From: Marmoricola sp.
GTDB lineage: Bacteria > Actinomycetota > Actinomycetes > Propionibacteriales > Nocardioidaceae
Direction of reading: 5' to 3'
DNA length: 36,723 bases
Assembly (NCBI GenBank): GCA_052040065.1
Contig: JBQGFI010000073.1
Coordinates: forward strand, 1-36,723
Shown: in pieces, positions 1,786 through 5,519 of the stretch
How the letters are laid out: the number at the start of each line of letters is the position of its first letter
Position numbering within the stretch: position 1 is the stretch's first letter
Notes under the pieces: model-generated
Seen by the model: only the letters and a program-made list of their open reading frames with translations
The model's database searches: none
What the model was told of the DNA's origin: nothing
Program-made: the position numbers and the translations under genes

Positions 1786-3402
1786 TCAGTGCACGCGCGT
1801 GCCGCCGACCCAGGTGCCGACCGTCGTCGCGGCGCCGATGTCGGCGACGTCGCCGGCGAAGGGGTCGCGGTCGAGCAGCACCAGGTCGGCCTGCTTGCCC
1901 GGCTCGACCGTGCCCGCCACCTCGTCGCGACCGTCGACCCACGCCGAGCCCGAGGTGTACACCGCGAAGGCCGTCTCCAGGTCGAGCGCCTGCTCGGGCA
2001 GGAAGGGCTCCGAGCCCGCCGGACCCGCCTCGCCGTGGGCCCACCGGTTGACCGCGACGTGGATCGCCTGCAGCGGGTCGGGTGTCGAGACCGGCCAGTC
2101 GGAGCCCGCCACGAGCGGCGCCCCCGCGCGGTGCAGCGCGCCGAAGGGGTACTGCCAGGTCGCCCGCTCCTCCCCGAGGAAGGGGATCGTCAGGTCGAGC
2201 ATCTGGTCGTCGAGACACGCCCAGACGGCCTGCATGTTGGCGGCGACGCCGAGCTCGGCGAAGCGGGGCACGTCGTCGGGGTGCACCACCTGCAGGTGCG
2301 CCACGTGGTGCCGCAGGTCGCTCGTCGAGCCGATCCCCGCGAAGGCGTCGAGCGCCTCGCGGACACCGCGGTCGCCGATGGCGTGGACGTGCACCTGGAA
2401 TCCCTCGGCCGCGAGCAGCGGCACCACGCGGCGCAGGGTGGCGGCGTCGACGAAGGAGAGGCCGGCGTTGGTCGTGGCGTGGCCGCAGCGGTCGAGGTAC
2501 GGCGCGGTCATCGCGGCCGTGAAGTTCTCGGCGACGCCGTCCTGCATGATCTTCACGCTGGTCGCCCGGAAGCGTCCGGTCGTGAAGGCCTCGCGGCGCT
2601 CGACCAGCGAGGGGATCTGCTGCTCGTCGCGGTCGCGCTCCCACCACAGCGCCCCGACGACGTGGGCGGTCAGGTCGCCGCGGCGCGCGGCGCGCACGTA
2701 CGCCGGACCGCAGTCGTCCATGCCGGCGTACTCGCCGATGATCGCGTCCTGCCAGCCGACCACCCCGAGCGAGTGCAGGTAGGCCTGCCCGGCCAGCAGC
2801 GCGGCGTCGTACTCCTGCTCGCTGGTGACGGGAAGCAGTCGCCCGACGAGCTCCATCGCGCCCTCGTGCAGCGTGCCGGAGGGACGCCCGTGCGCGTCGC
2901 GCTCGATGCGGCCGTGCTCCGGGTCGGGGGTGTCGGCGCCGACGCCGGCGAGCTCGAGCGCGCGGCTGTTGACCCAGGCGCCGTGGTGGTCGCGGTTGGG
3001 CAGGAAGACCGGCCGGTCGGGGCAGACGCGGTCGAGGTCGGCGGCGGTCGGCGTGCCGCCGGGGAAGGCCGCCATCGCCCAGCCGCCGCCGAGCACCCAG
3101 GGCCGCTCGGGGTGCGCCTCGGCGTACGCCGCGACGGCTGCGAGGTAGTCCTCGCGGGTGCCGAGCTCGGAGAGGTCGCAGCGGGTGCGCTCCAGCCCGC
3201 CCTGCACGGCGTGCACGTGGGCGTCGGTGAAGCCGGGGCTCAGCAGCCCGCCGTCGGCCTCGACCACCTCGGCGCCGCGCGGCACCGGTGCGCCGACGGC
3301 GCTGATGTGGTCGCCCTCGACCAGCACCGGGCCCACGTCGCCGCGGTAGCGCAGCCCGTCGAAGAGACGGGCACCGACGTACGCGATCTGCTGCTCAGCC
3401 AC
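1786..3402 (-). CDS. YtcJ-like metal-dependent amidohydrolase (amidohydrolase 3 family)
   Basis: PGFTDAHVH, VKIMQDG, HVHAIGD, RHHVAHLQ, AGSDWPV and GKQADLVLLDRD motifs; GTG start. Confidence 0.9.
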   Translation of the reverse strand: MAEQQIAYVGARLFDGLRYRGDVGPVLVEGDHISAVGAPVPRGAEVVEADGGLLSPGFTDAHVHAVQGGLERTRCDLSELGTREDYLAAVAAYAEAHPERPWVLGGGWAMAAFPGGTPTAADLDRVCPDRPVFLPNRDHHGAWVNSRALELAGVGADTPDPEHGRIERDAHGRPSGTLHEGAMELVGRLLPVTSEQEYDAALLAGQAYLHSLGVVGWQDAIIGEYAGMDDCGPAYVRAARRGDLTAHVVGALWWERDRDEQQIPSLVERREAFTTGRFRATSVKIMQDGVAENFTAAMTAPYLDRCGHATTNAGLSFVDAATLRRVVPLLAAEGFQVHVHAIGDRGVREALDAFAGIGSTSDLRHHVAHLQVVHPDDVPRFAELGVAANMQAVWACLDDQMLDLTIPFLGEERATWQYPFGALHRAGAPLVAGSDWPVSTPDPLQAIHVAVNRWAHGEAGPAGSEPFLPEQALDLETAFAVYTSGSAWVDGRDEVAGTVEPGKQADLVLLDRDPFAGDVADIGAATTVGTWVGGTRVH

Positions 3403-4591
3403 GGGCCGATGGTGCCACCTCGGGCGGGCGCGGCGCGGGGGGCAGCCAGCGCACCACGAGCGGGCCGAGCAGCACGGCCACCAGCCCGGCGACGAGCACC
3501 GGCGTGGCCACGTCGCCGGTCGGGGCGAGTGCGAAGCCGACGAAGGCCAGCACCTGGAGCACCTCGGAGAGCACGTTGGACGTCGAGATGACGGTGGCGC
3601 GGGCCCCGGCCTCGATGGAGTCCTGCAGCCGCACCTCGCTGACCACGACGGCCAGCTGCACCAGGCCGTAGCCCAGCGTGAGTGCCAACGCGGCGACGTA
3701 GGGGTCGTCGGCCAGGGCCGCCACCGCGACGAGCGCCCCGGCCAGCGACACCGCGGCGCCGACGTACGCCGGACGCCAGCGTCCGGCGCGGGTCGCGACC
3801 ACGGCGCCGACGATCTCGCCGAGGCTGGTCAGGGCGTAGAGCACCGGGATCAGCACCAGGGCCGCGCCCTGCTGCTCGAAGAGCAGGCCGAAGTACTCGT
3901 CGAGCACCTGCAGCGCCAGGATCGCCCCGCTCGCGAGCACGGCGCCGCGCACCAGCGCCGAGGTGCTCGCCTCGGCCAGGCCGGTGCGCAGCGCGTGGCG
4001 CCAGCGGTGCCAGACGCCGGGTCGTGGCGGGGCGAAGCCGGGCGCGCCCTCGAGGTCCTCGAGCTCCTCGACGTCGTCGGCCGAGACCGCCTTGGGGGCC
4101 GAGGGCAGCGAGAGCACCACGAGCAGCTGCACCCCGCAGACGCCCACGCTGGCCCAGCCCACGAGGTCGTAGCCACCGACGGCGAGCAGCGGGGTCGCGG
4201 CCACGCTCGCGAGCATCATCGCGGTGATCGCGAGCGCTCGACCGAGCCCGATGAGCCGGGCGTAGCGGTGCGGCGCGCCGAGGGCGGCCAGCTCGTCGTA
4301 GGCCAGCGCCAGGTAGGTGCCGGAGGTGAGCGCCCCCGAGAGCCCCCACAGCGCGAAGCCCGCCGCGAAGCCGGCGAACGACGGGAAGAGCACCCAGCAG
4401 GCGAAGCCCGCCGCGTAGGTCACCGCACCGAGGGCGAGCAGGAGCCGGCGCGAGACGGTGTCGGCCCAGGCGCCCGAGGGGACCTCGAGCACGATGCCGA
4501 CGACCGACCACAGCACGAAGAGCAGCGAGATGTCGGCGACCGAGAGCCCCGCGTCGGCGAAGAGCAGGGCGTAGACGGGGAAGATCGGCAT
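3395..4591 (-). CDS. MFS transporter (true N-terminus probably extends to 4657 or 4672; see findings)
   Basis: Many hydrophobic helices; MFS motif A-like EVPSGAWADTVSRR; acidic central loop. Confidence 0.85.
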   Translation of the reverse strand: MPIFPVYALLFADAGLSVADISLLFVLWSVVGIVLEVPSGAWADTVSRRLLLALGAVTYAAGFACWVLFPSFAGFAAGFALWGLSGALTSGTYLALAYDELAALGAPHRYARLIGLGRALAITAMMLASVAATPLLAVGGYDLVGWASVGVCGVQLLVVLSLPSAPKAVSADDVEELEDLEGAPGFAPPRPGVWHRWRHALRTGLAEASTSALVRGAVLASGAILALQVLDEYFGLLFEQQGAALVLIPVLYALTSLGEIVGAVVATRAGRWRPAYVGAAVSLAGALVAVAALADDPYVAALALTLGYGLVQLAVVVSEVRLQDSIEAGARATVISTSNVLSEVLQVLAFVGFALAPTGDVATPVLVAGLVAVLLGPLVVRWLPPAPRPPEVAPSARG

Positions 4592-4657
4592 GGCCTCGTC
4601 GAGCGCCTGCCACGCCAGCAGGCGCCACTCGAGGCGGCGGAGGTCGGTGGCGATGGG

Positions 4658-4672
4658 TCAAGGCTCGCGCAT
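4658..4672 (-). other. Leaderless 4-codon ORF (MREP-UGA) in frame with the MFS gene
   Basis: The minus strand reads ATG CGC GAG CCT TGA, then 22 in-frame sense codons to ATG 4591. It is preceded by TTGACC-N18-GACGGT-N6-ATG. Confidence 0.55.
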
Positions 4673-4715
4673 GTGCCGACCGTCGTACGGCGCGGACCCG
4701 CGGGTCAAGCGGATT

Positions 4716-5519
4716 TCAGCCGAGCGCGGCGCGCACCGCGCGGACGTCGTCGGGCCCCACGCGGCAGCAGCCGCCGACGCCGATCGCGCCCGCGGCGACC
4801 CACTGCGGCACGAGCGCGGGGTCGAAGGCGCCCGACCCGGTCCACCGCTTGTGGGTGGCGTCCCAGTCCTCGCCGCGGTTGGGGTAGACGACCCCGGGGG
4901 CCGACATCAGCGCCAGCGCCCCGAGCACGTCGCCGGGGGCCGAGCAGTTGACGCCGGGGACCACGTCGGTGGCCGCGACGGCGGCGTACGCCTCGGCGAG
5001 CGGCTGGCCGGCACGGGTGCGGTCGCCGGCGACGGCGTAGGAGAGCCACGCGGGGAGGTCGAGCTCACCCAGCAGGTCGAGCAGCACCAGCGCCTCGTCG
5101 AGGTCGGGCACCGTCTCGACGGCGAGCAGGTCGGGTCCGGCCGCGGCGAGCGCCTCCAGCCGCGGGGCGTGGACGTCGCGCAGCGCGGCGGGCGTCAGGC
5201 CGTAGCGGCCGCGGTACTCCGAGCCGTCGGCGAGCAGCGCGCCGTACGGTCCGAGCGAGGCGGCGACCAGACCGTCGGGGGCCACGCGGTCGCGCACCTC
5301 GCGCGCGATCCGCACGCCGTCGCCCAGCAGCTCGAGCGGCGCCTGGTAGGTGGCCGTGGTCGCCACGTCGGCCCCGGCGCGGAAGTAGCGCTCGTGCACC
5401 GCCGCCACCCGTCCCGGCTCGTCGCGCAGCACCCGCGCCGTCCACAGCGGGTCGGTGAGGTCGGCACCCTCGTCCTCGAGCGCGTTGGACATGCCACCGT
5501 CGAGGACGCGGACAGTCAT
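4716..5519 (-). CDS. mmuM: Homocysteine S-methyltransferase
   Basis: VLDGGM, SLGPYGALLADGSEYRG, LAVETVP, GVNC, YPNRGE and the Zn-binding GGCC motif. Its ATG overlaps the transketolase TGA (ATGA). Confidence 0.85.
   Translation of the reverse strand: MTVRVLDGGMSNALEDEGADLTDPLWTARVLRDEPGRVAAVHERYFRAGADVATTATYQAPLELLGDGVRIAREVRDRVAPDGLVAASLGPYGALLADGSEYRGRYGLTPAALRDVHAPRLEALAAAGPDLLAVETVPDLDEALVLLDLLGELDLPAWLSYAVAGDRTRAGQPLAEAYAAVAATDVVPGVNCSAPGDVLGALALMSAPGVVYPNRGEDWDATHKRWTGSGAFDPALVPQWVAAGAIGVGGCCRVGPDDVRAVRAALG

Follow-up and report, generated by a model that had tools for sequence, protein, structure and literature searches.

The window analysed here, 36,723 nucleotides of Marmoricola sp. 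DNA (contig JBQGFI010000073.1), carries on its minus strand an MFS transporter gene (3395..4672) that would encode 425 residues if an early in-frame UGA is read as a residue; all window features described below lie on the same strand. Direct reading of the sequence indicated that ATG (4672-4670) is followed by CGC GAG CCT and then by TGA (4660-4658), giving a four-codon leader, M-R-E-P (4661..4672), whose last codon CCT places U at -1 (4661) of a putative readthrough gate (4658..4660) in the context U-UGA-CCC. Behind the stop lie 22 sense codons (4592..4657), all G/C-ending and without ATG, GTG or TTG, which are modelled as the first half of helix TM1 and lead to an internal Met in mid-TM1 (4589..4591), from which the MFS frame is open to TGA 3397-3395. 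Upstream of the leader, a -35 hexamer that fits TKGMNN, TTGACC (4703..4708), is followed after 18 bp by a -10-like hexamer, GACGGT (4679..4684), 6 nt before the ATG, and most homologues carry TANNNT at the position matching GACGGT; this promoter geometry suggests a leaderless transcription start at the leader ATG. On re-reading, this arrangement of leader, stop, start-free codons and TTGACC-N18-GACGGT proved to be as the first-pass annotation had described it. A candidate WblC/WhiB7 site, GAAATC (4712..4717), lies 3 bp before the -35, matches GAAAWY exactly (0 mismatches) and overlaps the stop of the upstream homocysteine S-methyltransferase gene (4716..5519). Downstream, the GTG of an Amidohydrolase_3 gene (1786..3402) overlaps the MFS end by 8 nt (3395-3402), and this gene may share a transcript with the MFS gene, and hence the same switch, in this genome. 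Neither neighbour is generally kept: a Pfam scan of 147 flanking ORFs of L036-L115, left after 5 of 152 candidates had been dropped as the MFS gene's own antisense frame, found no conserved neighbours.

The early in-frame UGA is real and not a sequencing error. A check of the reads at 4658-4660 had been proposed, and the stop was found bridged in contigs of X1, X2, X6, X7 and X3, with no other letter listed; X1, X2, X6 and X7 come from four studies, of which one may be that of the window itself; among the pieces listed for runs X8 and X18 none spans the stop, and run X10 contributed none. Genome G014 carries the same MREP-stop before an MFS protein that is 96% identical.

The product belongs to the MFS by its MFS_1 domain (62 bits against a cut-off of 33.4) and is 95% identical to a Nocardioides aequoreus entry. 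Its AlphaFold model (pLDDT 91.6) has a 12-helix MFS fold, and the best-ranked fold matches were MFS transporters with TM scores up to ~0.7, which identify only a generic MFS. In this model the 22 post-stop residues fall in helix 2-20, the first half of TM1, with pLDDT 92-97. Because homologues with an ordinary start begin upstream of the TM1 helix, Met 4591 is to be regarded as the gene-caller's start, and starting there would, on the model, remove half of TM1. The possibility raised earlier, that the protein starts at Met 4591 and homologues lack the upstream 22 residues, therefore did not hold, since homologues keep the upstream residues. Many public entries of the family start inside TM1, the artefact expected of a hidden start. 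The dN/dS values were 0.07-0.51 in 15 pairs by a crude count (0.07 against G014), and by this measure purifying selection acts on the MFS downstream of the stop. As for function, TetA(P), Tet(40) and HP1165 were the best NCBIfam matches for 9-16 of 16 members, with E values of 1e-8 to 1e-12; the window protein reached 33.8 bits against HP1165, for which the cut-off is 700, and at E 0.001 matched neither TetA(P) nor Tet(40). The MFS is thus, by sequence similarity, likely a drug pump with a remote likeness to TetA(P)/Tet(40). A profile search among representatives, in which the family comprised 683 clusters at E 1e-30, gave no clue to the substrate, and neither did the plasmid search; two named examples were gained.

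The conservation of the arrangement was then assessed in 207 distinct homologous loci, pooled and de-duplicated from related genomes, named GTDB contigs and metagenomes. In class I (143 loci, including the window's), a leaderless-type ATG or GTG opens a leader of 2-10 codons that closes with a stop and is joined to the MFS in the same frame; class II shares this leader and stop, but its leader frame continues and ends on the MFS start in an AUGA overlap (36 loci by rule and 34 by hand, L218 and L220 being miscalled). The remaining 28 of 207 fall in neither class by rule (14 other, 14 none), and on manual inspection several of these are fused leaders or double stops. The leader search was frame-blind, taking the nearest ATG with xANNNT 5-8 nt upstream. 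Applied to a first set of 123 loci anchored on the profile, from which 10 duplicates or frameshifted fragments were dropped, it gave 101 short leaders; relative to the leader, the MFS was in frame for 86, in -1 for 14 and in +1 for 1. Besides these, 6 starts ran into the MFS and 6 loci had none. By the same rule, a held-out set of 95 loci (107 minus 2 unanchored, 9 short of upstream DNA and 1 duplicate) gave 58 fused (class I), 22 coupled (class II), 10 other and 5 none; the loci are related by descent, so that all such counts overstate independence. The spacer from stop to TM1 varies from 0 to 43 codons with the frame kept throughout. Before TM1, 110 of 143 class I loci have no ATG, GTG or TTG, and 75 of those 110 also lack CTG, ATH, ACG, AAG and AGG. 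The leaders themselves are free to vary, with 116 different peptide sequences of 2-10 codons. The gene is patchy: it was found in 16 of 401 genomes of the phylum, in 9 of the 103 from the genus and in 39 of the 151 from a Streptomyces-like genus. It occurs, among others, in Nocardia, Rhodococcus, Kribbella, Nocardioides, Streptomyces, Micromonosporaceae and Nonomuraea, as well as in other classes of the phylum. Among 151 genomes, 28 have the Streptomyces leader motif, each as a single copy next to the MFS, and the 112 genomes lacking the MFS have none.

On a FastTree phylogeny built from 183 proteins over 382 columns and rooted at the midpoint, for which 10 loci were skipped and short ones omitted, parsimony required at least 12 interconversions of classes I and II, a figure taken without a shuffle test, and 8 changes of stop identity; the last leader residue changed 47 times and the -1 base 20 times. 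Four close relatives without the stop (L134, L135, L137 and L197) are nested among the carriers. Because three of these four match the WblC site poorly, with 3-4 mismatches, it is suggested that the stop and the WblC site were lost together. Two in-frame stops close together, for example MPFR-stop-LH-stop, were observed in L087, L218, L253 and L274, and such leaders would represent either tighter gates or decay. Collectively, a conserved stop, purifying selection and a frame kept on either side, features expected of programmed readthrough, were all found. The tBLASTn-type question of the first-pass annotation, whether leader, stop and MFS share one conserved frame, is answered yes by the 143 class I loci, and its fear of a strain-specific error, with orthologs carrying a sense codon, is dispelled by the stop in 179 loci and in G014. 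On this comparative evidence, the in-frame stop is a conserved design.

The nucleotide context of the stop was examined in the 179 leader loci. The stops were TGA in 163, TAG in 12 and TAA in 4, and the base at -1 was U in 150 of 179, reached through 14 different codons, compared with T at -1 in 1.2% of 1807 normal TGA-ending ORFs of the window's genome and T-ending in 60 of 476 other leader codons. At +4, C was found in 78, U in 71, G in 29 and A in 1; U at +4, which is a tight termination context in E. coli, thus occupies 71 of 179 leaders against 9% genome-wide, and +6 is a pyrimidine in 168 of 179. The earlier proposal of a weak UGA-C context as the key therefore stood only in part, as C occupies +4 in only 78 of 179, and U at -1 gives the strongest signal. 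All 12 UAG versions, which fall in at least two separate clades (e.g. L048, L085, L106, L183 and L205), are followed by GT, and Kribbella leaders end in CTT TGA C. Readthrough induced by gentamicin in mammalian cells was reported to be determined mainly by U at -1, which acts as a nucleotide (PMC3315467); the link drawn from it to our leaders would be cross-domain, by analogy with a rule from eukaryotic ribosomes. Several other roles for the stop were rejected. An altered genetic code does not fit, as TGA terminates 1809 of 2297 coding-like ORFs (79%) and is the main stop in the genome, release-factor (PCRF) genes are present, and no UGA-reading suppressor tRNA was among the 37 ARAGORN hits, which form an incomplete tRNA set. 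Hopping over the stop onto a matching codon was discarded because the same residue stands on both sides in only 18 of 179, and T-TGA-C as an internal -35 because a -10 follows in only 6 of 143 class I loci.

A hairpin behind the stop (4623..4652) had been proposed as a readthrough stimulator. Its arms are indeed complementary, but it is not the predicted fold, is neither significant nor conserved, and stands outside the mechanism considered here. The 48 nt after the stop gave a z of -1.29, with 20 of 200 shuffles folding as well, and the 143 class I loci had a mean fold z of -0.25, with z below -2 in 13. Structure-stimulated readthrough of the viral or eukaryotic type was accordingly rejected, there being no conserved 3' stem-loop or pseudoknot, and Rfam returned 0 hits for 6 loci. 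Selenocysteine insertion was rejected likewise: no conserved SECIS stem was found, the spacer of 0-43 codons is not fixed, and UAG and UAA versions exist. SelA was not found in the window's genome, G000 (88% complete), or in G014 (99% complete), and was full-length in 3 of 10 carrier genomes and absent in that form from 7. A methionine or selenium link through the upstream methyltransferase was dropped as well for want of conserved neighbours.

In class II, the reading frame of the leader runs for 18-46 codons beyond the stop and closes precisely at the MFS start, in an AUGA overlap; this extension usually crosses a predicted SD-masking stem. Because the DNA is GC-rich and the +1 frame is also open in 35 of 36 class II loci, an open leader frame alone is weak evidence, and it is the AUGA phase that counts as evidence; in L121, ~20 codons of repeats were gained and this phase was kept. 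Of 193 leader loci, 36 encode an RGPP motif in the leader frame past the stop, written with 4, 3, 2 and 4 synonymous codons at its successive positions. The Streptomyces-type RGPP loci form one broad clade, RGPP appears again in Nonomuraea, and it is absent from the window's own locus. RGPP peptides are reported to arrest S. lividans ribosomes (PMC12992588). Because the motif overlaps the anti-SD strand of the stem, RNA pairing contributes to its conservation. L172, L176 and L193 display a third wiring, namely leader, stop, RGPP, a second stop, SD and an in-frame ATG ~14 codons on. Classical attenuation, with an arrest peptide before the stop and a masked SD, does not describe class I, which has 116 peptides and no downstream start; class II has the predicted SD-masking stems and, in Streptomyces, RGPP, but beyond the stop.

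The promoter suggests who turns the gene on. A WhiB7 candidate is present in G000 as L154 (G000:C319:7008-7154), with an AT-hook, which we take to be whiB7 from its C-terminal RGRPRK hook and uORF leader. L154 has its own AT-rich promoter and a long uORF, and its hook reads KGPRGRPRK, with R replacing the first G in G014 and two other relatives. The WblC site was described as GAAAWY 3 bp before a TKGMNN -35 (Lee et al., PMC7157823), and the window promoter, GAAATC-3 bp-TTGACC-18 bp-GACGGT-6 nt-ATG, has this form with a spacer inside the 16-19 bp range of WhiB7 promoters. Across the family, an A/T peak lies at the WblC-site position, and GAAAWY with at most 2 mismatches was found in 125 of 179 promoters versus 18 of 179 at a control site; 54 of 179 have 3 or more mismatches, and a TKGM -35 occurs in only 59 of 179. 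In S. coelicolor, the MFS gene SCO1457 is listed as WblC-activated 18.7-fold with a ChIP peak (Table S2, PMC7157823), and a transporter survey gives TetA(P) as its best TC hit and SCO1459 as an APC permease (PMC3924187). SCO1457 thus lies two genes from an APC permease, and in Streptomyces the order APC permease, AsnC-type regulator, MFS is seen at L094 and L103; because of the TetA(P) best match, which the family shares, and of this common neighbourhood, SCO1457 is the probable orthologue in S. coelicolor. No papers naming SCO1454-1459 were found in the literature searched. From the exact motif and the probable orthologue, we infer that WhiB7 would control the MFS promoter. Neither the WhiB7/WblC site nor the AUGA/RGPP form of relatives had been noted in the first-pass annotation. 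A search for the same design elsewhere in the genome gave 32 loose matches and 14 WblC-type leaderless starts, among which only the MFS locus was convincing. At G000:C270 ~3540-3620 (+), a WblC-type promoter precedes a leaderless 9-codon uORF with a TGA that overlaps an out-of-frame GTG, and the gene there is possibly a coupled WhiB7 target. On G000:C323 (-), a 12-codon ORF ending T-TGA-TTT shares its frame with an ORF of 445 codons in which no canonical start comes until 30 codons on, which may be chance.

Taken together, these observations favour, with a probability of roughly 0.6, a two-key switch in which WhiB7 switches the mRNA on and the pump is then licensed by drug-induced readthrough. 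Under ribosome stress, WhiB7/WblC would activate the promoter, as the exact motif and probable orthologue suggest, and a ribosome would start at the 5' AUG of a leaderless mRNA, as the geometry suggests, and meet the UGA at codon 5, so that normally only the tetrapeptide would result. When an amino acid is inserted at the stop, translation would run onward in frame, a step for which the frame evidence argues strongly. In class I the outcome would be a full transporter with TM1 intact; in class II the extended leader would cross the SD-masking stem and end at AUGA, so that the MFS start is freed and coupled, and in Streptomyces class II the RGPP pause would fall on the SD-masking stem. Readthrough, plausibly under ribosome-targeting drugs, had been suggested at the outset and now appears the likely route, given the kept frame and the lack of starts before TM1. 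The last step, that a misreading or termination-impairing drug is both the trigger and the substrate exported by the pump, is somewhat better than an even proposition. A ribosome drug is favoured as trigger because the leader peptide is free to vary, all three stops serve, the promoter is of WhiB7 type, the gene stands alone and the product remotely resembles drug exporters; and low-dose misreading agents are favoured over hard blockers because class I needs 420 more codons finished. Decoding-site agents such as aminoglycosides are our lead guess. In E. coli reporters, amikacin and azithromycin were reported to raise readthrough by only about 2-3-fold, and chloramphenicol and oxazolidinones are cited there as raising it too (PMC10959953).

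The evidence was also weighed against readings in which the stop senses something else, or nothing. If readthrough were constitutive, the stop would be a fixed damper that limits output of a costly membrane protein to a few percent of the WhiB7-induced mRNA; this fits all the frame evidence equally well, as well as the freely varying peptide and length of the leader (116 peptides) and the loss of the stop in some relatives. A weak start would damp more simply, however, and the stop has persisted in different classes of the phylum; moreover, the SD-masking stem of class II and the RGPP behind the stop amplify rare events, and the excess of +4 U suggests a low basal leak. We therefore regard a damper as unlikely. 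Alternatively, the level of Trp-tRNA or the amount or methylation of RF2 could set the competition at UGA, with the MFS exporting a metabolite. The predominance of UGA agrees with such metabolic sensing, as do the reading of the pepNL UGA by Trp-tRNA (PMC11890864) and the membership of trpS in the WblC regulon (PMC7157823), but UGA is equally the stop of 79% of ordinary ORFs, the 12 UAG and 4 UAA versions arose repeatedly (8 stop changes) although pepNL readthrough is UGA-only, and neither a conserved arrest peptide before the stop nor conserved metabolic neighbours were found, which makes this reading distinctly unlikely; low RF2 alone, one of the causes first put forward, cannot explain the 16 UAG/UAA versions.

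Termination followed by re-initiation, whether at a near-cognate codon that is in frame with the MFS or at the UUG of U-UGA, would account for U at -1, which creates that UUG; the window has ATC two codons past its stop, and class II uses coupling at AUGA. Such a route does not need an in-frame leader, yet 86 of 101 are in frame; the 75 class I loci without any canonical or near-cognate start before TM1 offer no codon for it; in class I the UUG is out of frame, and in 13 of 36 class II loci it runs into a stop; and the better starts AUG and GUG, with A or G at -1, occur in only 7 of 179. Re-initiation at a non-canonical codon, also proposed earlier, is thus disfavoured and quite improbable. 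That nothing is regulated here, the locus being a pseudogene, a sequencing error, a gene starting at Met 4591 or a selenocysteine gene, is barely credible: databases do start the protein at the internal Met or similar, and full-length SelA exists in 3 of 10 carriers, but the stop recurs in contigs of four studies and in 179 loci, the dN/dS against G014 is 0.07, a Met 4591 start loses half of TM1 where stop-less homologues begin upstream, and selenocysteine faces 7 of 10 carriers, including the 99% complete G014, without full-length SelA, as well as the lack of a conserved 3' stem and of Rfam hits in 6 loci.

Beyond the two-key switch at this locus, it is about an even bet that the element is a phylum-wide riboregulator in which the stop codon itself is the sensor, a leaderless mini-ORF with a U-stop measuring drug-induced readthrough. 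The same pump would then be wired by direct fusion, by AUGA coupling or by a hidden RGPP opening a masked SD; together with WhiB7, such a stop would form an AND gate telling misreading or termination-blocking antibiotics from other ribosome stress, and it would point to other "broken" or mis-started genes under like control. If drug-induced, the switch would add a new sensing logic for inducible antibiotic resistance beside stalling and frameshifting leaders, and would show how the broad WhiB7 response is narrowed gene by gene. The family further provides ~180 natural variants for bacterial stop-context rules (U at -1, pyrimidine at +6, UAG-GU) and would offer a ready-made whole-cell reporter for miscoding or termination-blocking natural products, and many of its database entries would need to be read as mis-started inside TM1.

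No description of the element, nor of regulated in-frame readthrough switching on any chromosomal bacterial gene, was found in the full-text literature searched, which covers few subscription journals; the main text of Belinky 2021 (PMC7918605) mentions neither MFS nor actinobacteria. Among known systems, the WhiB7/WblC regulon shares GAAAWY 3 bp before the -35, the 18-bp spacer and an MFS target, SCO1457 being listed (PMC7157823), and the second, translational key is the new part; the terms "stop codon" and "leaderless" occur 0 times in that paper's main text. RAPP/RGPP leaders likewise carry RGPP just upstream of the controlled gene, as in Streptomyces-type loci (PMC12992588), but in the MFS leaders RGPP is hidden behind the stop, where only readthrough would bring the ribosome to it; the available text of PMC12992588 contains none of the terms "MFS", "stop codon" and "read-through". 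The TetA(P)/Tet(40)/HP1165 exporters (TC 2.A.1.21) provide the best NCBIfam matches and the 12-helix MFS fold, although the similarity is remote and the substrate not transferable. In pepNL, too, a bacterial leader has a UGA that is read through as a regulatory step, but PepNL needs a specific 14-residue hairpin peptide together with UGA (PMC11890864), whereas the MFS leaders have 2-10 residues in 116 sequences and readthrough would be needed for expression. The ermC gene is induced by ketolide-driven frameshifting in its leader (PMC10959953). The MFS event would instead be in-frame stop readthrough without a frameshift, its leader peptide is unconserved, and in class I the leader would become the transporter's own N-terminus. 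Common to both would be the sequence of ribosome drug, recoding error in a short leader and resistance gene switched on. The RF2 gene prfB is autoregulated by a +1 frameshift at CUU-UGA-C. There, too, an early stop interrupts the gene and expression needs failed termination, and the Kribbella CTT TGA C recalls its site; the MFS leaders differ in being in frame 0, in having no SD-like stimulator, in using UAG and UAA as well and in preceding a transporter gene, and a prfB-type +1 gate was rejected, with frame 0 in 86 of 101 leaders and +1 in 1. By analogy, the element would work like prfB and the ermC switch in that expression depends on a recoding event, and it is distinct from both because the tests that define them fail here, the frame being 0 and no peptide being conserved.
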